64,000 bases of DNA from Candidatus Woesebacteria bacterium (GTDB taxonomy: Bacteria > Patescibacteriota > Microgenomatia > UBA8517), in contig CP055307.1 of NCBI GenBank assembly GCA_013374835.1, forward strand, positions 146,622 to 210,621. The letters run 5' to 3'. Of this stretch, positions 24,193-34,279 are shown in pieces. Position 1 is the stretch's first letter. Every line of letters starts with the position of its first letter. Below the pieces are notes generated by a model. The model was not told the DNA's origin. It saw only the letters and a program-made list of their open reading frames with translations, and ran no database searches. The position numbers were made by a program, and so were the translations under genes.

Positions 24193-24711
24193 TTGTTAAT
24201 ATATAATTTAAGTTCAATGAATACACTAACTTCAAAACCGTGGTGGAATTATTTGCAAAACGATATTAAAGACTTGCTTGGTGAATCCTTTCTCCTTCTT
24301 GAAAAATCCAAAACGTGGAGAAAAAAGTTTCATGACTATTCGTTTGTAGTATTTCCCGCATCCAAAGCCTATGAGGGATTTTTGAAAATATTACTTCTGG
24401 ACATGGGTCTTATTACGAAAAAAGATTATTTCGGCAAGCATTTTCGCATAGGAAAATCTCTTAATCCGAGTCTAGATGTTAAGTATCGAGATGAAAGCTG
24501 GGTATACGACAATCTTGCTAATTTTTGTAAAAGCGAAAAATTGCCCCAAAAATTATGGAAAACATGGAAAACGGCAAGGAATTTAGTCTTTCACTGGTTT
24601 CCGAACGAAGTAAATGCAATTACACTGCCCGAGGCCGAAGACAGAATAAGGCTCATAATAGAATCAATCGATTTAGTCTATACGGAATGTGGTGTAAAAT
24701 TAATTAGATGA
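24193..24711 (+). CDS. Hypothetical protein with a HepT-like HEPN signature (R-N-x3-H-x-F).
   Basis: TARNLVFHWFPNE matches Rx4-6H / RNxxxHxY-like. The predicted protein is about 170 aa, alpha-helical and small. It overlaps the next gene by 4 nt. Confidence 0.35.
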   Translation: MLIYNLSSMNTLTSKPWWNYLQNDIKDLLGESFLLLEKSKTWRKKFHDYSFVVFPASKAYEGFLKILLLDMGLITKKDYFGKHFRIGKSLNPSLDVKYRDESWVYDNLANFCKSEKLPQKLWKTWKTARNLVFHWFPNEVNAITLPEAEDRIRLIIESIDLVYTECGVKLIR

Positions 24712-25349
24712 AGCTTGACAAATTCAAACACACAATAGCCCTTTATGCATTTCTGCTTGTCGCTTGGGGTTTTTATAGGCTTCTTTTCCAATTCCCCGAA
24801 GAAATTGAAATTCTAATAATTAAACCGCTTGTTTGGCTCGTACCCACATTCTACTTAGTTAAAAAAGAAAAAGAAAAGATTCAAAGCTTAGGTGTTACTA
24901 CCAAAAATTTATTTCCAACGCTTTATTTTGCAATTTTCTTGGGTGCAGTGTTTTTAATTGAAGGCTTGTTTGTTAACTATCTTAAACACGGAAGTTTGTC
25001 TTTTGGAGCAAACATAGGCAGCATTCCTATTCTTGAGGCTGTCTTTCTATCCTTCGCGACAGCTCTCTCGGAAGAAATTACATTTAGGGGCTTTATATTT
25101 ACACGCATTTGGCAGAATCTTAAATCCGAGTGGACCGCAAATATTCTCACCAGTGTAGGATGGACGCTAATACATCTTCCGATAGCTGTACTTGATTGGA
25201 AACTTGCATTATCAGAACTTCTTATATACTCTTTATTGGTAATGTCTTTTTCTTTAGGGGCTTCCTTTATTTTTGCACGCACAAGAAACGTTTTCGCTTC
25301 GGTTTTTCTCCATGTTTTATGGCAGTGGCCGATTATACTATTTAGATAA
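24708..25349 (+). CDS. CPBP-family intramembrane glutamic endopeptidase (CAAX protease / Abi domain, PF02517).
   Basis: Multi-TM protein with an EExxFRG motif (LSEEITFRGFIF) and downstream conserved His residues (LIHLP, FLHVLWQ). Confidence 0.75.
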   Translation: MKLDKFKHTIALYAFLLVAWGFYRLLFQFPEEIEILIIKPLVWLVPTFYLVKKEKEKIQSLGVTTKNLFPTLYFAIFLGAVFLIEGLFVNYLKHGSLSFGANIGSIPILEAVFLSFATALSEEITFRGFIFTRIWQNLKSEWTANILTSVGWTLIHLPIAVLDWKLALSELLIYSLLVMSFSLGASFIFARTRNVFASVFLHVLWQWPIILFR

Positions 25350-25392: not shown

Positions 25393-26016
25393 ATGCTTCG
25401 GCGTTTAACAATATTATCACCAGTAGTGGTTTTTGCAACGATTATTCTTTTGGCATCTATATTTCGTTCGGCATCGGTTAAATATTCGTTTCATTTACCT
25501 CCTTCAAGCGAGACCATAATTACGGTAAATACTCCAAAAATTGATTATTCTCTTCCCTCGGTTGGAGCAGTTGGTCCAAAGCATCCACTTTGGCCTCTTG
25601 AGGTGGGTCGGGACAAAATTTGGCTTTTTATAAATAGAGATTATCTCAGAAAGGCTGAAATTGCGCTTCTGCTTGCTGATAAAAGGCTTTCTTATGCTGA
25701 TCATTTAATGGGTGAAGGTAACGTTGAATTTAGCATGTCCGTAGCGAGAAAATCGGAGATGTACCTTGAAGAATCCTGCAAATATTTGGAGAAGGCGGAA
25801 GAACACGGAGCAAATGTGCTCGATTTTACAGAAAAATTGTCGCTTGCATCACTTAAACATCGCGAAGTTTTGGAAACAATGCTTACTCATGCTCCAGAAG
25901 ACGCAAAACCCATTCTTATACAAATCCTTAATATTTCAAAAGGAGTTTACGAAAAGACAACTCATCTTCTTAATAAATACCAAAGAAGTCTTTATACAAA
26001 CCCCTTTAAAAGTTGA
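25393..26016 (+). CDS. Membrane-anchored hypothetical protein.
   Basis: N-terminal TM helix and a helical C-terminal region. I recognise no motif. Confidence 0.45.
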   Translation: MLRRLTILSPVVVFATIILLASIFRSASVKYSFHLPPSSETIITVNTPKIDYSLPSVGAVGPKHPLWPLEVGRDKIWLFINRDYLRKAEIALLLADKRLSYADHLMGEGNVEFSMSVARKSEMYLEESCKYLEKAEEHGANVLDFTEKLSLASLKHREVLETMLTHAPEDAKPILIQILNISKGVYEKTTHLLNKYQRSLYTNPFKS

Positions 26017-26077
26017 GTAATTACTGAATTTTTCTTAATTCTGACATTTTTTGACATATTTATTAATAGTTGACATC

Positions 26078-26142
26078 ACACATTTAGTGTTAGAATATTG
26101 TGAATATCACTGGAAATAGTGTTTTTCTATTTCACAAGTGAA
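26078..26142 (+). promoter_or_regulatory. Cluster of CAC/GTG palindromes upstream of nrdR-nrdJ, candidate NrdR boxes and promoter.
   Basis: ACACATTTAGTGT (26078-26090), GTGAATATCAC (26100-26110), CACTGGAAATAGTG (26108-26121) and TTCACAAGTGAA (26131-26142). The 2nd and 4th palindrome centres are about 31.5 bp apart, as in tandem NrdR boxes. A possible promoter is TTGACA at 26070 and TAGAAT at 26091. Confidence 0.45.
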
Positions 26143-26146
26143 ATAT

Positions 26147-26593
26147 ATGAAATGCCCTTTTTGCAATGCAGACGAAACCCACGTACTGGAATCAAGAGCA
26201 ATAGAAGATGGGCGGGTTATAAGAAGAAGGCGGAAATGCATTAAGTGCAAAAAGCGCTTTACAACATACGAAAGCATAAAAAAAAGCGTCCTTTGGGTTG
26301 TCAAAAAGAGTGGTAACAGAGAGCCTTTCGATAAAGAAAAAATTAAAAGAGGTATTTTAAGAGCAATTGAAAAAAGACCTGTATCTCTTGATCTCGTAAA
26401 CGATATCGTAGATCAGGTAGAAAGAGAAATGCTCAAAAAAGAAAAAGAAGAAGTCCCATCCCGCTGGATAGGGAACGAAGTTTTAAAAAGGTTGATAAAA
26501 ATCGACAGAGTAGCCTGGCTTAGATTTGCAAGCGTATATTTGGAGTTTGAGGAACTCAAAGATTTTGAAAACGCAATAATCAAAAAAAAGTAA
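26147..26593 (+). CDS. nrdR: Transcriptional repressor NrdR (zinc ribbon + ATP-cone).
   Basis: MKCPFCNADETHVLESR...CIKCKKRFTTYE followed by an ATP-cone. The ORF track started at an upstream GTG. Confidence 0.93.
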   Translation: MKCPFCNADETHVLESRAIEDGRVIRRRRKCIKCKKRFTTYESIKKSVLWVVKKSGNREPFDKEKIKRGILRAIEKRPVSLDLVNDIVDQVEREMLKKEKEEVPSRWIGNEVLKRLIKIDRVAWLRFASVYLEFEELKDFENAIIKKK

Positions 26594-26594
26594 T

Positions 26595-29045
26595 ATGGTA
26601 ACAAAAAAGAAGCAGCTTAATTTAGAGAGCCTAACATTTCCTTCATATGAGGAAATCAAAACTATAACAGAAAAAAGAGTAGGCAAGATGCCGAAGTTGC
26701 CAAAGGCTCTTCCAAAAGGAGATTGGTCCGAGCAGGCACTAAAAGTGCTGGAAGAAAGATATCTGCAAAGAAATATTAATAACGAAGTGAACGAAACCCC
26801 TGAAGAAATGATCTGGAGAGTTTCCTGGGAAATAGCTTCCGCGGAAGCGATCTGGGGTAAAAAAAGGTCAGAAGTTAGAAACAAAGCAATAGAATTCTAC
26901 AAGCTTCTTATAAGCCGCGAGTTTCTTCCGAATTCGCCAACCCTTATGAACGCCGGTACCGGAAACATGCTTCAATTTTCAGCGTGTTTTGTTCTTCCCG
27001 TAGACGATTCAATGGAGGGAATTTTTGACGCACTCAAATTCCAAGCATTAATACACAAAAGCGGGGGCGGAACCGGCTTTTCCTTCAGCCGCTTAAGACC
27101 TAAAGGATCCTTAGTTAAAAGTAGCAAAGGTACGGCATCGGGTCCAGTTTCGTTTATGAGGGTGTTCGACGCGGCAACGAATGAAGTAAAGCAGGGGGGG
27201 AAAAGAAGGGGGGCAAACATGGGTATCTTAAGAGTTGATCATCCGGACATTTTAGAATTTATCCACTGTAAAGAAGAGGGCGGAATTACAAACTTTAATA
27301 TATCAGTTGCAATTACGGACAAATTTATGGAAGCTTATGAAAAAGACGAAAACTACGACCTTTTAGATCCGAGAACACAAAAAAAGATAGGATCTCTTTC
27401 GGCGCGAAAAGTATTTACACAGATTGCTGAAGCTGCATGGAGAACGGGCGATCCGGGATTAATCTTTATAGATAGGATAAACATGTCCAAAGCAAATCCC
27501 GTACCATCACTTGGTCCTATCGAATCAACTAATCCATGTGGTGAACAGCCTTTATACCCCTTTGACTCCTGCAATCTTGGGAGTATTTTTTTAAGCTATT
27601 TTGTAAAAGAAGATAATAGTGGAGCAAAATCGGTAGATTGGGATAAATTAAAAAAAGTAACAAGACAAGCTGTGAATTTTTTGGACAACGTAATCGAGCT
27701 AAATCCTTATCCACTTGAGGAAATTAGAAGAATTTCCCTTGCAATAAGAAGAATAGGTCTTGGTGTAGGCGGATGGGCTGATATGTTAATCGATTTGGGC
27801 ATACCCTACGATTCTGAGCAAGCTCTCAGACTGGGAGAGAAAATTATGAAAACAATTAGCGAAGAAGCAGTAGCGGCTTCCGAGGATTTGGCTAAAAAAC
27901 GAGGCCCTTTTCCTCTTTGGCCGATTAGTATCTATAAAAACGATAAACCAAGAAGAAATTCAACAGTTACAACAATTGCTCCAACAGGCACAATTTCTAT
28001 AATTGCAGGCACATCAAGTGGTATAGAGCCGATTTTTGCAATAGCATTCCAGCATATTGTAAAAGATAAACATTTAGAAAGAACGCTAAATTTCATAAAT
28101 CCAAAATTCGAAGAAATAGCACGAAAACAGGGGTTTTGGTCCGAAGAAATAGAAAAAAAAGTATCAGAACACGGCACAATTAGAAGTATTGAAGAAATAC
28201 CCGAAGAAGTAAGAAACATATTTGGTACCGCCCACGAAATCCACCACGATTGGCATATAAAAATGCAGTCAGCCTTCCAAAAATATACGGAAAATGCAGT
28301 AAGTAAAACTATAAACCTAAGAAACGAAGTAACTCCTGAAGATGTAAAACAATCTTATGTTCTAGCTTGGAAAACGGGCTGCAGCGGAATCACTGTTTTC
28401 AGAGACGGCTGTAAAAACGCTCAAGTATTAAATCTCGGCATCAAAGAAGAAAAAGAGGGAGAAAAAGGCAATGGAATTATAAAACCAACAGAAGAACGCC
28501 CATTCAAAGTATCAGGTGCCACATACAAACTCAAAACTCCGGTAGGCACGGCCTTTATTACCATAAATGAGGACGACAAAGGCGAACCGATCGAAATATT
28601 TATAAACGTAGGCAAGGCCGGCAGTGATATTACAGCAGTCGCAGAAGCGCTCGGGCGCACGGTTTCAACAGCGCTTAGATTTAAAGGTGTGCTTAGCCCA
28701 AGACAAAGGGCGATAGAAATAGCTAGTCAGCTTTCTGGGATCGGAGGAAGAAGGTCTGTCGGCTTCGGTCCCAACAAAATTCGCTCTCTTCCAGATGCTG
28801 TTGCTGTTGCTCTTTCAAACCATCTTGGTTTTAAGATAAATGGAACTTATCACGAACAGGTAACAGACTCCGAAAAGCTCTATTTGAACAACAAAGAAGG
28901 TCAAGCATATAATTTTACTCAAACACAAGCTGCTTTGGAAATTGTATCGATTAAAGCGGATATTTGCCCTGTTTGTGGAGCAAACGCTTTAGTTTATGAA
29001 GAAGGGTGTGAAAAATGTCACGTCTGTGGTTATTCGGAATGTTAA
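26595..29045 (+). CDS. nrdJ: Class II (adenosylcobalamin-dependent) ribonucleotide reductase.
   Basis: 816 aa with LMNAGTGNMLQFSACFVLPVDDSMEGIF, NPCGEQPL and a C-terminal Cys zinc finger (CPVCG...CEKCHVCG). Confidence 0.9.
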   Translation: MVTKKKQLNLESLTFPSYEEIKTITEKRVGKMPKLPKALPKGDWSEQALKVLEERYLQRNINNEVNETPEEMIWRVSWEIASAEAIWGKKRSEVRNKAIEFYKLLISREFLPNSPTLMNAGTGNMLQFSACFVLPVDDSMEGIFDALKFQALIHKSGGGTGFSFSRLRPKGSLVKSSKGTASGPVSFMRVFDAATNEVKQGGKRRGANMGILRVDHPDILEFIHCKEEGGITNFNISVAITDKFMEAYEKDENYDLLDPRTQKKIGSLSARKVFTQIAEAAWRTGDPGLIFIDRINMSKANPVPSLGPIESTNPCGEQPLYPFDSCNLGSIFLSYFVKEDNSGAKSVDWDKLKKVTRQAVNFLDNVIELNPYPLEEIRRISLAIRRIGLGVGGWADMLIDLGIPYDSEQALRLGEKIMKTISEEAVAASEDLAKKRGPFPLWPISIYKNDKPRRNSTVTTIAPTGTISIIAGTSSGIEPIFAIAFQHIVKDKHLERTLNFINPKFEEIARKQGFWSEEIEKKVSEHGTIRSIEEIPEEVRNIFGTAHEIHHDWHIKMQSAFQKYTENAVSKTINLRNEVTPEDVKQSYVLAWKTGCSGITVFRDGCKNAQVLNLGIKEEKEGEKGNGIIKPTEERPFKVSGATYKLKTPVGTAFITINEDDKGEPIEIFINVGKAGSDITAVAEALGRTVSTALRFKGVLSPRQRAIEIASQLSGIGGRRSVGFGPNKIRSLPDAVAVALSNHLGFKINGTYHEQVTDSEKLYLNNKEGQAYNFTQTQAALEIVSIKADICPVCGANALVYEEGCEKCHVCGYSEC

Positions 29046-29049
29046 TTAT

Positions 29050-29589
29050 ATGTCTATCTACACCAAAAAGGGGGACAAAGGAACAACATCGCTTTTTAAC
29101 CCCGCACTTTACAAAGAAAAAAGAATTCCAAAAAGTGCCCAAAGAATAAGAGTAATAGGCGAAATAGATGAACTAAATAGCTTTCTTGGTATTATTTCAT
29201 CCAAAATTAGAAATAAAGATACTAAAAAATTTATTATCAAAATTCAAAAAAATTTATTTACCATAAACGCTGTTATTGCAGGTGCCAAATTGTCTTTCAA
29301 AAACGAAGAAACAAAGTTTTTGGAAAAAAAGATTGACAAAATCGAAAAATTGCTTCCGCCGCTCAAAAATTTCATAATACCGGGCGGAGACACTCTGGCC
29401 AGCGAAGTTATGTACGCTCGCACAATAGCAAGAAGGGCAGAAAGAGAGCTTGTTGCTTTGAGCAAAAAGGAAAAAGTCAAACCAAGCCTGCTCAAATACA
29501 TTAACAGACTTTCTGACGCTCTCTTTATGGTCTCAAGAAACATAAATTTTGCAAAAGGCAAAAAAGAGACTCCTTGGAAGCCTCGCTAA
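29050..29589 (+). CDS. PduO-type ATP:cob(I)alamin adenosyltransferase.
   Basis: MSIYTKKGDKGTTSL matches the PduO consensus YTRTGDKGTTSL. About 180 aa. It makes functional sense next to the B12-dependent RNR. Confidence 0.85.
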   Translation: MSIYTKKGDKGTTSLFNPALYKEKRIPKSAQRIRVIGEIDELNSFLGIISSKIRNKDTKKFIIKIQKNLFTINAVIAGAKLSFKNEETKFLEKKIDKIEKLLPPLKNFIIPGGDTLASEVMYARTIARRAERELVALSKKEKVKPSLLKYINRLSDALFMVSRNINFAKGKKETPWKPR

Positions 29590-29608: not shown

Positions 29609-29944
29609 ATGGTTGTACCCCCCGAGAAGGAATCGGTTCTAAAAGAATTTGAAATACCCGACGAGCCTGAAATTGGCGAAGGCGCAAGAGAAGCGGGTGT
29701 TTCTGTGCGTCCAGTGTATCCCAGGGTGCCTCCACCTCTTACGCCAAGTAGCGGAGCAACGACCCTTCAAAGAAGAGAAAAAAATGTTCGAAGCGTTGAA
29801 TTTGCTTATCCACAAAATGTATATGAAGATATGTCAAAAGGTTCAGCGTCTGATTCTAAGACCTGGTACGGTGTATTTAATTTAAGAAGAATCAAAAAAG
29901 CACTATTAAAAGGTTTAAGAGTAATTTTAAAAGCAGAAAAATGA
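29609..29944 (+). CDS. Hypothetical Pro-rich small protein in a locally GC-rich segment. The coding status is uncertain.
   Basis: About 50% GC versus about 36% in the flanks, with two overlapping ORFs in different frames (29549..29944 and 29649..29885). Confidence 0.3.
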   Translation: MVVPPEKESVLKEFEIPDEPEIGEGAREAGVSVRPVYPRVPPPLTPSSGATTLQRREKNVRSVEFAYPQNVYEDMSKGSASDSKTWYGVFNLRRIKKALLKGLRVILKAEK

Positions 29945-32283
29945 ATACTTCCACACTCACCCAAAGCATTACAGTTTTTTTCATCTTTTTGTTTTTGTTG
30001 ACATTTTTTTTCATTTTATTTGGCTTTATTGCTTGGTCAATAGCTCTTTATTATCGGCAAAAAGAAAGAGAAAAAAAGTCTCTTGAAGCAGTTCTTCTTC
30101 AGGTTGCCACTCCTAGAGGAAATGAAATAAAGCCGGACGCAATGGAGCAGTTAATAGGGGCTCTCCATTCTATAAAAAAAAGTGGTTGGAAAACACGAAT
30201 CTATGGCCAACCATGTATATCTTTTGAAATAGTAGCCAAACGGGAGGACATTAGATTTTATGTTTGGACGTTTAAAAACCAAAAAGATCTTTTAGAAAAA
30301 CAAATCCACGGCGCTTATCCCGATGCACAAATAACAGAAGTTCCCGAATACAATATATTTTCAGAAAACGGAAAGGTGGCATATAAAGCACTTCAATTAA
30401 AAAAAGATAATTTTTATCCGATAAAGACATTTAAAGAACTGCCCACAGATCCGCTCGCATCAATCACTTCTTCTCTGGCAAAAATGGGGGAAAATGAAGC
30501 CGCATCAATTCAAATCCTTATTTCTCCCGTCGATTCGTCCTGGCAAACCCAAGGCAAAAATTACATTTCACAAACAAAAAAACAGGAATCCGATCCAGAA
30601 AAAGCAAAATATTCTGTGCCAGTCAAAACCCTAGAGGCTGTAGAGAATAAAATCTCAAAGCCCGGCTTTGAGGTTTCAATTAGGCTGGTAGTGGTTTCGG
30701 AAACAGAGGATTCCGCTAAGGCGCACCTAGGAAATGTAGTAAGCGCTTTTTCACAATTCGATGGAGACTTAAACGGCTTTGGTTCAAGAAAAATAAGAAA
30801 CAAAGGGGCATTTATCGAAGATTTTATTTACAGATATCACCCCCTTTTCCATTTTGGCAAAAATAGAATATCAATCCTAAACGCGGAAGAAATCGCCACA
30901 ATTTTTCATTTTCCAAACAAACTTATAACAACACCGCATATCTACTGGCTTAACGCAAAGCGCGCTCCGGCACCAGCAGAAATACCTACACAAGGACTCT
31001 ATCTTGGCATAAGTAGCTATAGAGGCGTAAAACGTGAAGTCTTCATTTCGGATCCGGATAGATTAAGGCACATGTATATAATTGGACGCACAGGTACGGG
31101 TAAATCCGAGTTTCTCAAAAACATGATCAGGCAGGATATAAACGAAGGAAAGGGTTTGTGTTTTATGGATCCTCACGGAGATGCAGTAGAAGACATTCTA
31201 AATTTTATCCCACCAGAACGCGCAGAAGACGTTATTTATTTTCGCCCGTCCGACTCAGAAAGACCAATGGGACTAAATCTTCTGGAAGCTAAAACAGAAG
31301 ACCAGCAGCATTTTGCAGCAACAGCGGTTATTAATATGATGTACAAGCTCTTTGATCCCTACAAAACCGGAATAGTAGGTCCTAGATTTGAACATGGTGT
31401 AAGAAATGCAATGCTTACAGTAATGCAGGGAATGGAAGGGGGAACATTTATAGAAGTAATGAAAGTAATGACAAACTCACGTTTTGTCCAGGAACTTTTG
31501 CCGAGAGTTAAGGATCCAATAGTCAGAAGTTATTGGCAAGACCAAATTGCTCAAACTTCAGATTTTCATAAATCCGAAGTTCTTGACTATACTGTTTCTA
31601 AATTTGGCCGCTTCGTGACAAACAGAATGGTACGCAACATAATCGGTCAATCAAAATCTTCCTTCTCATTTAGAGACATAATGGATAACGGCAAAATCCT
31701 GCTTATCAACCTTTCCAAGGGAGAGCTGGGCGAGGAAAACAGTAGCTTTCTGGGTCTGGTTCTTGTACCAAGAATACTTATGGCCGCTATGAGTCGATCG
31801 GATATTCCTGAAGAAAATAGGCGTGACTTTTATCTTTATGTAGACGAGTTTCAGAATTTTGCAACGCCCGATTTTGCTCAGATTTTATCCGAGGCAAGAA
31901 AATACAAGTTAAGCTTGACTGTTGCAAACCAATTCATAGGTCAAGTTGATGAGGAGGTAAAAAACGCTGTATTTGGAAACGTTGGAACCCTAATTTCATT
32001 TAGAGTTGGGGTTAATGACGCAAACTACTTAACCCACGAATTTAGCCCTGTTTTTGGCGAAGATGATCTCTTAAACATTGAGCGCTATCATGCTTTTGTC
32101 AAAACAATTGTTAACAACGAACCCGTACCTCCTTTTTCAATGGATACAACAATGAATTTGGAAGAAATCGCAAAAAAAAGAAACATCAAAGTAGCCGAAG
32201 TTATCAAAGAAATGAGCAGACTAAAATACGGTAAGGATGTAAGGTTGGTAGAATCGGAAATAAATTCAAGAGCAAAGCTTTAA
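29941..32283 (+). CDS. Membrane-anchored HerA/FtsK-superfamily P-loop ATPase (DUF87 / VirB4-VirD4-TraD-like conjugation-type ATPase).
   Basis: N-terminal hydrophobic hairpin. Walker A GRTGTGKSEF is followed by CFMDPHGD (the DPHGE motif of the HerA/VirB4 family), and Walker B is LYVDEFQNF. The 330-aa N-terminal domain is of unknown type. Confidence 0.65.
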   Translation: MNTSTLTQSITVFFIFLFLLTFFFILFGFIAWSIALYYRQKEREKKSLEAVLLQVATPRGNEIKPDAMEQLIGALHSIKKSGWKTRIYGQPCISFEIVAKREDIRFYVWTFKNQKDLLEKQIHGAYPDAQITEVPEYNIFSENGKVAYKALQLKKDNFYPIKTFKELPTDPLASITSSLAKMGENEAASIQILISPVDSSWQTQGKNYISQTKKQESDPEKAKYSVPVKTLEAVENKISKPGFEVSIRLVVVSETEDSAKAHLGNVVSAFSQFDGDLNGFGSRKIRNKGAFIEDFIYRYHPLFHFGKNRISILNAEEIATIFHFPNKLITTPHIYWLNAKRAPAPAEIPTQGLYLGISSYRGVKREVFISDPDRLRHMYIIGRTGTGKSEFLKNMIRQDINEGKGLCFMDPHGDAVEDILNFIPPERAEDVIYFRPSDSERPMGLNLLEAKTEDQQHFAATAVINMMYKLFDPYKTGIVGPRFEHGVRNAMLTVMQGMEGGTFIEVMKVMTNSRFVQELLPRVKDPIVRSYWQDQIAQTSDFHKSEVLDYTVSKFGRFVTNRMVRNIIGQSKSSFSFRDIMDNGKILLINLSKGELGEENSSFLGLVLVPRILMAAMSRSDIPEENRRDFYLYVDEFQNFATPDFAQILSEARKYKLSLTVANQFIGQVDEEVKNAVFGNVGTLISFRVGVNDANYLTHEFSPVFGEDDLLNIERYHAFVKTIVNNEPVPPFSMDTTMNLEEIAKKRNIKVAEVIKEMSRLKYGKDVRLVESEINSRAKL

Positions 32284-32310: not shown

Positions 32311-32383
32311 GGATGCGTAGCTCAGTGGTTAGAGCACCGATCTTATAAGTCGGGGGTCGATGGTTCAAATCCATCCGCATCCA
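32311..32383 (+). tRNA. tRNA-Ile with anticodon UAU (TAT).
   Basis: Manual fold: acceptor GGATGCG/CGCATCC, D-arm GCTC-AGTGGTTA-GAGC, anticodon stem CCGAT/GTCGG with loop CTTATAA (U33, anticodon TAT, A37), T-arm GATGG-TTCAAAT-CCATC, discriminator A. Confidence 0.8.
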
Positions 32384-34101: not shown

Positions 34102-34171
34102 TGCGGGGTAGTGTAGGGTTGCACGGAAGGCTCATAATCTTCCAGACCGGGTTCAACTCCCGGCCCCGCAA
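34102..34171 (+). tRNA. tRNA with anticodon CAU (Met elongator, or Ile2 if lysidinylated).
   Basis: Manual fold: acceptor TGCGGGG/CCCCGCA, anticodon stem GAAGG/TCTTC with loop CTCATAA, T-arm CCGGG-TTCAACT-CCCGG. The D-loop and variable loop are short, and pair 1-72 is U-A. Confidence 0.6.
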
Positions 34172-34206: not shown

Positions 34207-34279
34207 GCCAGGGTAGCTCAGTCGGCAGAGCACAGGATTCATAAACCTGCGGTCGTGGGTTCGATCCCCACCCCTGGTA
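34207..34279 (+). tRNA. tRNA with anticodon CAU (Met, fMet or Ile2 cannot be distinguished).
   Basis: Manual fold: acceptor GCCAGGG/CCCTGGT (G1-U72), D-arm GCTC-AGTCGGCA-GAGC, anticodon loop TTCATAA, T-arm GTGGG-TTCGATC-CCCAC, discriminator A followed by CC. Confidence 0.7.

Follow-up and report, generated by a model that had tools for sequence, protein, structure and literature searches.

The present analysis concerns a 64-kb stretch of Candidatus Woesebacteria DNA (hereafter the window) and, within it, positions 26040-29589, where a 130-nucleotide (nt) intergenic leader is followed by the genes nrdR, nrdJ, and pduO, arranged head-to-tail on the + strand. We propose, with a probability of roughly 85%, that these genes represent an autoregulated operon, the leader of which carries a pair of NrdR boxes of canonical geometry (26075-26090 and 26107-26122) positioned over the predicted promoter.

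The first gene, nrdR (26147-26593, + strand), encodes a 148-amino-acid repressor in which an N-terminal CxxC...CxxC Zn-ribbon precedes an ATP-cone, as reflected by matches to PF22811 (Zn-ribbon; 73.5 bits), PF03477 (ATP-cone; 65.9 bits), and TIGR00244 (184.7 bits, cut-off 124.65). The protein aligns over its full length with the solved Escherichia coli NrdR (E = 1e-40), and its closest clusters carry the source names Woesebacteria, Microgenomates, or Patescibacteria. The product of nrdJ (26595-29045, + strand; 816 amino acids) is assigned, by curated equivalog cut-offs, as a class II adenosylcobalamin-dependent ribonucleotide reductase (NF006417, 1028.4 bits, cut-off 961; TIGR02504, 702.1 bits, cut-off 399.95). 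The domain models covering the reductase barrel and the all-alpha domain score 447 bits (PF02867) and 80 bits (PF00317), and PF12637 scores 47 bits, the last representing a C-terminal TSCPD domain which is accompanied by a Cys-rich tail; the nearest genome match for this protein, from Woesebacteria UBA1430, is 94% identical. The third gene, pduO (29050-29589, + strand), specifies a PduO-type ATP:cob(I)alamin adenosyltransferase (TIGR00636, 168.6 bits, cut-off 108.45; PF01923, 170.6 bits). The stop codon of nrdR (26591-26593) is separated from the nrdJ ATG at 26595 by a single nt, and that of nrdJ (29043-29045) from the pduO ATG at 29050 by 4 nt, in agreement with an earlier note, made from the sequence alone, which had described a head-to-tail unit of these three genes with a spacing of 1-4 nt. 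The mechanically called open reading frame (ORF) start of pduO, at 28996 inside nrdJ, was rejected, as the conserved N terminus MSIYTKKGDKG begins at the ATG at 29050. We infer that the three genes are co-transcribed; no terminator was found after pduO, and the transcript may, therefore, extend into the downstream genes.

NrdR sites are composed of two partially palindromic 16-base-pair (bp) boxes with conserved C4, A6, A8, T9, T11, and G13, separated by a linker of 15-16 bp (PMC13584703). A weight matrix derived from the ten E. coli and Streptomyces coelicolor boxes which bind NrdR in vitro (Table 1, PMC13584703) was used to scan the whole window. Box 1, ATCACACATTTAGTGT (26075-26090, + strand), scored 7.9 bits (rank 17 of 63,985 positions), and box 2, TCACTGGAAATAGTGT (26107-26122, + strand), scored 7.85 bits (rank 18). 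Together they form the top pair with a 15-16-bp linker in the 64 kb (15.7 bits, compared to 10.5 bits for the runner-up), and no shuffle reached their pair score when the leader was randomized 20,000 times with dinucleotides preserved. The linker measures 16 bp, which places the box centres 32 bp apart, i.e., approximately three helical turns. Box 1 matches five of the six conserved positions (A6, A8, T9, T11, and G13), its A4 being flanked by C3 and C5, and has a central AT; box 2 matches C4, A8, T11, and G13, carries G6 and A9, and has a central AA. The A+T content between positions 4 and 13 is 75% in both. Mutational analysis of NrdR sites has identified C4 and G13 as critical and A6 and T11 as important, with the central AT being replaceable while the centre retains at least 63% A+T and a 9-bp C-to-G gap being tolerated in one box only (PMC13584703). 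The deviations observed in the window (the C shifted by one in one box, the central AA, and the 75% A+T content) thus fall inside the mutationally tolerated range. A third in-phase NrdR box located 15-16 nt past box 2 (GTGAAATATATGAAAT) was considered and rejected, as it possesses neither C4 nor G13, and no other position in the leader exceeded 2 bits.

The box pair overlaps a predicted sigma-70-type promoter. A promoter scan returned a perfect -35 hexamer, TTGACA (26070-26075, + strand), of which TTGAC is invariant or nearly so across the 27 distinct leaders described below (1.73 bits per column). It is followed by a -10 region, TAGAATAT (26091-26098, + strand), which can be read as TAGAAT (15-bp spacer) or GAATAT (17-bp spacer) and which conforms to nAnnAT in the clade; a -10 element within these positions predicts a transcription start at approximately 26103-26106. 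Box 1 starts on the last base of the -35 hexamer and fills the -35/-10 spacer, while box 2 directly follows the -10 region and spans the predicted transcription start. Overlap with the promoter or the RNA polymerase site is the usual arrangement of NrdR boxes (PMC13584703). Farther upstream, an element of the form TGAYAT-N3-TTTGA (26042-26054, + strand; TGACATTTTTTGA in the window), in which T26042, G26043, and G26053 are invariant across the 27 leaders, possibly represents an activator site or a UP-like element. Together with the -35 hexamer, this element forms three TGACAT direct repeats in the window (at 26042, 26052, and 26071), spaced by 10 and 19 nt.

Scans of species-representative genomes and metagenomes identified 28 further syntenic loci, which together with the window provided 29 leaders, 27 of them distinct (clade leader set: L001-L010, L012, L018, and L041-L056). 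The gene order DUF5667 gene-nrdR-nrdJ-pduO is kept in these 28 loci (with a TraG-like ATPase gene beyond it where the contig allows), and their NrdR proteins are 60-99% identical to that of the window. In 26 of the 29 leaders, the best matrix pair begins 5-6 nt into TTGAC, and two of the three exceptions are aligned at the same position, namely L004, in which the matrix register is shifted, and L055, in which the hexamer reads TTGAT. Among the 27 distinct leaders, the linker measures 16 bp in 20 cases, 15 bp in 4, 17 bp in 2, and 18 bp in 1. A MAFFT alignment, which is independent of the matrix, returned T11, G13, and G15 of box 1 and C2, T11, and G13 of box 2 as invariant, and near-invariance was seen at A6 (box 1) and at C4, A12, and G15 (box 2); C4 is present in 17/26 orthologous copies of box 1 and 25/26 of box 2. 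Information across the 27 leaders averages approximately 1.05-1.1 bits per column in the boxes versus 0.2 in the linker (26099-26106). When a clade matrix was assembled without the window and two near-identical relatives, box 2 of the window ranked 1st among 127,970 positions (both strands) and box 1 ranked 13th. Central AT occurs in just 15 of the 54 clade boxes, and the outer halves, TCACTA and TAGTGT, are conserved. On the basis of these alignments, the NrdR boxes of the Woesebacteria clade are considered to be recognisable as such and relaxed at their centre.

Box pairs with 15-16 bp linkers were also evident before nrdR in other nrdR-nrdJ lineages, with or without pduO (L011, L013, L019, L060, and L070). 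Two of these loci, L060 (558-3756) and L070 (2024-5941), belong to an unrelated lineage (NrdR 52-53% identical, with Asp15) in which nrdR is followed by nrdJ, pduO being detected in L070 only. Their boxes (ATACAACATATTGTAT in L060, which matches 6/6 conserved positions, and ATACAACCTATTGTAT in L070) are better matching and end 4 nt 5' of the ATG.

The mechanism proposed for the Woesebacteria operon is drawn from the solved systems of S. coelicolor and E. coli (PMC9110341, PMC13584703). As deoxyadenosine triphosphate (dATP) rises, NrdR loaded with ATP and dATP would form a tetramer, the two Zn-ribbon pairs of which would occupy both boxes, introduce a sharp bend in the DNA, and exclude RNA polymerase. 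Since the operator is followed first by nrdR, the levels of repressor, class II reductase, and adenosyltransferase would be lowered jointly when dATP accumulates. With ATP only, NrdR is expected to assemble into higher oligomers which do not bind DNA, such that the operon would be transcribed. The role of PduO would be to supply NrdJ with its cofactor, adenosylcobalamin, made from salvaged cobalamin. Autoregulation is the natural expectation from the position of nrdR directly behind the operator; the earlier note had arrived at the same prediction on a different and incorrect basis, namely, the overlap of the last leader palindrome with the nrdR start.

A number of observations weigh against the proposed NrdR control and temper its probability. 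Both boxes are weak, their 7.9 and 7.85 bits comparing with 11.4-18.1 bits for the bound reference boxes. Box 1 is without the critical C4 (C3 provides a 9-bp gap to G13, which belongs to the tolerated class), and box 2 carries G6, a type of change which, when introduced in both boxes as A6G, lowered affinity 4-10 fold (PMC13584703). Neither box passes either of the published regular expressions, which were discarded as detectors: the 8 strict pair matches found elsewhere in the window were A-rich chance matches outside promoter positions and, coupled with the failure on the window pair, this indicates that the expressions are not useful in this A+T-rich genome. Both boxes pass in 0/27 distinct leaders for the expression published in 2025 and in 1/27 for that of 2026 (C.[AT].[AT][AT].[AT].G), and screens based on the published expressions would, therefore, miss nearly the whole clade. 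Furthermore, the orthologous boxes were located using the same matrix, so that their logo is biased; neither the MAFFT columns nor their fixed distance to the -35 hexamer depends on that matrix.

The remaining point against this reading concerns the repressor itself. NrdR is understood to read DNA via Asp15 and Arg17 and to contact the backbone via an RRRR motif; Asp15 of S. coelicolor NrdR is situated near the DNA bases and has been reported, along with one other residue, to confer sequence specificity (PMC9110341). In the window NrdR, Arg17 and RRRR (residues 26-29) are present, and residue 15 is Glu (codon 26189-26191). Glu15 is shared by 28/28 syntenic relatives and, among the 120 nearest cluster representatives retrieved, by all 119 that allowed the motif to be located, while Asp occupies this position in 66/67 other NrdRs (from other loci) and in the solved E. 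coli NrdR. As residue 15 lies close to the bases, the clade NrdR may differ in its exact specificity, and the clade-wide change from Asp15 to Glu may be regarded as a natural experiment on the reading of NrdR boxes.

The leader is unusually rich in short CAC/GTG palindromes, of which the earlier note had listed four. All four exist: CACACATTTAGTG (26077-26089), which forms the core of box 1; GTGAATATCAC (26100-26110), which has GTG..CAC polarity and combines a left arm in the linker with a right arm at the start of box 2; CACTGGAAATAGTG (26108-26121), the core of box 2; and TTCACAAGTGAA, i.e., (TT)CACAAGTG(AA) (26131-26142), which is contained within a third conserved dyad discussed below. Boxes 1 and 2 thus correspond to the first and third palindromes, widened to 16 bp. 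Five CAC/GTG inverted pairs are present in the leader, compared to a mean of 0.13 across 983 windows of 130 nt in the 64 kb, among which only the leader reaches five, and this number was attained in 2 of 5,000 mononucleotide shuffles. The palindrome cluster is, therefore, far denser than chance would produce, and it is confirmed not to be a chance feature.

Two alternative accounts of the operator deserve consideration. The earlier note had taken the second and fourth palindromes, GTGAATATCAC and TTCACAAGTGAA, as the tandem NrdR boxes, an assignment which is almost certainly incorrect. Both are perfect short palindromes built on CAC/GTG arms, and their centres (26105 and 26136.5) are indeed 31.5 bp apart, as had been stated, and thus close to three helical turns. 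Nevertheless, GTGAATATCAC scores -16.6 or -23 bits and TTCACAAGTGAA -7.8 bits (sum, -24 to -31), and each matches merely 3/6 conserved positions. The former has inverted polarity, with its GTG arm located in the unconserved linker (0.2 bits per column), while in the latter the CAC and GTG arms are 2 bp apart, as opposed to the 8 bp between C4 and G13 of a box, a gap whose reduction to 7 bp abolished binding in the one mutant concerned (PMC13584703). Thus, GTGAATATCAC does not constitute an independent operator, and TTCACAAGTGAA is conserved yet is not an NrdR box. Matrix scoring and the comparison of orthologous leaders, both of which the earlier note had suggested, returned poor scores and a lack of conservation for its chosen palindromes as a pair but not for 26075/26107; a tandem operator with three-turn spacing is, therefore, present in the leader, although not at the palindromes that had been named. 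Considerably less implausible, but still very improbable, is the notion that some other regulator binds the boxes at 26075/26107, or that these boxes are conserved only as promoter architecture, with the operon lying outside NrdR control. The degeneracy of the boxes, their failure to pass the published expressions, and the divergence of the clade NrdR at residue 15 would be compatible with such an account, as would the overlap of box 1 with the promoter spacer, owing to which part of the conservation could be promoter-related. It is difficult to reconcile, however, with the finding that a matrix from distant species (E. coli and Streptomyces) ranks exactly this pair best in 64 kb, with the 15-17 bp linker in 26/27 distinct leaders, or with conserved columns (C4, A6, T11, A12, and G13) which are those of the NrdR pattern; moreover, nrdR sits immediately behind the site, and -35/-10 spacers are not normally conserved as a dyad. 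NrdR control through the pair at 26075/26107 is, therefore, retained as the preferred reading.

Downstream of box 2, the leader harbors a third dyad, TTTCACAAGTGAAA (26130-26143, + strand; clade consensus TTT[A/C]CAY-NN-RTGAAA); within the leader, only the -35 hexamer is better conserved than this block (1.35 bits per column). In 25/28 leaders, the RTG of the dyad is found 14-15 nt past box 2. In 10 leaders, this RTG is the nrdR ATG itself (ATGAAATGY, encoding MKC), while in the remaining leaders the nrdR ATG is located 8-143 nt further downstream and a short reading frame, which is not conserved, starts at the RTG. In the window, as in the sequences nearest to it, this codon (the GTG at 26138) shares the frame of nrdR and provides a three-codon extension (MKY-MKCPFC). 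A search of 894 kb of DNA recovered the dyad element in these leaders and at one other site, and it was found in 0 cases before the ATG of 67 nrdR genes from other lineages. The third dyad probably carries the ancestral nrdR start codon, and it may act as a structure that occludes the start codon or as an additional operator, approximately two helical turns away from box 2, or it may be a remnant of the ancestral start.

Among the possible functions of this dyad, a role at the level of RNA or translation is a tentative one, in which the dyad would contain an ancestral and possibly still used nrdR start, with a weak occluding hairpin or a short upstream reading frame exerting the control. The coincidence of the RTG with the nrdR ATG in 10 leaders and the in-frame GTG at 26138 fit this explanation, and folding predicts an A/U-rich hairpin (7 bp, -3.5 kcal/mol), although it was matched or beaten by 18/200 shuffles. 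Shine-Dalgarno-like motifs precede 49% of starts in the window, compared to a background of 52%, and GGAG/GAGG precedes 19% versus 23% (57 long ORFs; a crude test with approximate starts); their absence before nrdR is, therefore, not special, and the selection of starts must make use of other features. In contrast, no consensus RNA structure was obtained (RNAalifold 0.0; mean z -0.9), covariation is weak (one varying pair) and confounded by relatedness, and the upstream peptides are unconserved. An extra NrdR contact, or the site of a cooperating regulator, located 22 bp from the box 2 centre so as to create a tripartite operator, appears unlikely. While the strong conservation of the dyad, its near exclusive occurrence in Woesebacteria nrdR leaders, and a distance to box 2 which is fixed even where the nrdR start has moved by 8-143 nt would all be expected of such a site, and three-box NrdR promoters are known (e.g., Thermotoga nrdJ and Streptococcus pneumoniae nrdHEF), the dyad is unlike an NrdR box, is imperfect (one pair is broken in 13/27 sequences), and has no known factor assigned to it, and its fixed position could merely reflect the ancestral start codon. 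A more inclusive proposal, which we advance only speculatively, is that of a variant NrdR system characterized by the fixed Glu15, boxes with conserved outer halves and a free centre, and the third dyad, 14-15 nt past box 2, as an additional control element (operator or start-codon block) that was kept where the nrdR start moved.

Other interpretations of this part of the leader were tried and rejected. Structures in the 5' untranslated region (a box 2 hairpin with a U-run attenuator, or base pairing between box 2 and the third dyad, the latter at -11.3 kcal/mol and z = -1.8 in the window) found no support in the RNAalifold consensus or the mean z already mentioned. The DnaA box has the consensus TTWTNCACA; the third dyad matches it at 7/9 positions in the window, positions 8-9 vary across the clade, and this candidate was rated weak. 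Derivation of the leader extensions from tandem duplications of the nrdR start was likewise discounted, as gapless similarity past RTGAAA was not significant, with hints in L004, L051, and L054. As regards known RNAs, riboswitches or other, nothing in the leader reached the gathering score.

The operon combines arrangements of known kinds, namely, the autoregulation of Streptomyces-type nrdRJ and the nrdJ-pduO linkage of Lactobacillus. In the S. coelicolor nrdRJ operon, which carries two NrdR boxes (Borovok 2004; Grinberg 2006; Rozman Grinberg 2022 [PMC9110341]), nrdR is likewise the first gene, followed by that for the class II reductase, and two 16-bp boxes with a 15-16 bp linker are positioned over the promoter and transcription start, with NrdR repressing its own operon, as is predicted here. 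The Woesebacteria operon differs in that pduO is appended, in its A+T-rich and degenerate boxes (no C4 in box 1, G6 in box 2, and central AT in 15/54 boxes of the clade), in a repressor with Glu15 rather than Asp15, and in its host, which belongs to the Patescibacteria and is not an actinomycete. The Lactobacillus delbrueckii cluster nrdJ-cbrS-cbrT-pduO resembles it in linking a class II reductase gene to the PduO-type enzyme which makes its cofactor from salvaged cobalamin, and the same logic, by which PduO supplies NrdJ, has been drawn for that cluster (PMC5997447). In contrast to L. delbrueckii, the window has no cobalamin transporter genes between nrdJ and pduO, includes nrdR in the unit, and has no cobalamin riboswitch anywhere in its 64 kb. 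The same geometry is seen in the canonical NrdR operators of E. coli (nrdAB, nrdHIEF, and nrdDG) and Listeria (nrdDG) (PMC13584703, PMC12051234), in which two boxes separated by 15-16 bp overlap the site of RNA polymerase and the second box lies close to the start codon; their boxes pass the 2026 expression, as do both boxes in just 1/27 of the Woesebacteria leaders.

A literature search found no paper on NrdR in Patescibacteria. Judged by the sequence evidence, NrdR autoregulation of a class II reductase, which was first described in Streptomyces, appears to extend to the reduced genomes of the Patescibacteria, and its coupling to an enzyme which would activate a scavenged B12 cofactor fits organisms unable to make cobalamin. 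The analysis mainly constitutes a clean annotation and overturns nothing known; the leads which reach beyond annotation are confined to the Glu15 specific to this clade, the relaxation of the box centre, and the third dyad.

Variation was also apparent in the reductase genes of the loci examined. The NrdJ occupying the slot between nrdR and pduO is merely 35-39% identical to that of the window in some relatives (L042, L046, L049, L051, and L053-L055), and L008 carries a pair of nrdJ-like genes. Interruptions of 1-1.3 kb, possibly inteins, divide the nrdJ match in several loci (L013, L019, L031, and L038).

Directly downstream of pduO, a small ORF (29609-29944) overlaps the next gene via an ATGA junction. 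This next gene (29941-32283) encodes a TraG/VirD4/TrwB-like ATPase of 780 amino acids and holds the same position in relatives, and no terminator was detected between it and pduO. Upstream of the leader, an A+T-rich palindrome (AAAAGTTGAGTAAT / ATTACTGAATTTTT; 26008-26033) overlaps the stop codon of the DUF5667 gene, is followed by a T-run, and may represent the terminator of that gene. Farther upstream, positions 24193-24711 specify a 172-amino-acid protein that weakly matches HEPN and RnlA (RNase LS toxin) domains, and this gene adjoins one for a CAAX-protease-like membrane protein (24708-25349). Three tRNA genes are located on the + strand beyond the ATPase gene, at 32311-32383, 34102-34171, and 34207-34279.

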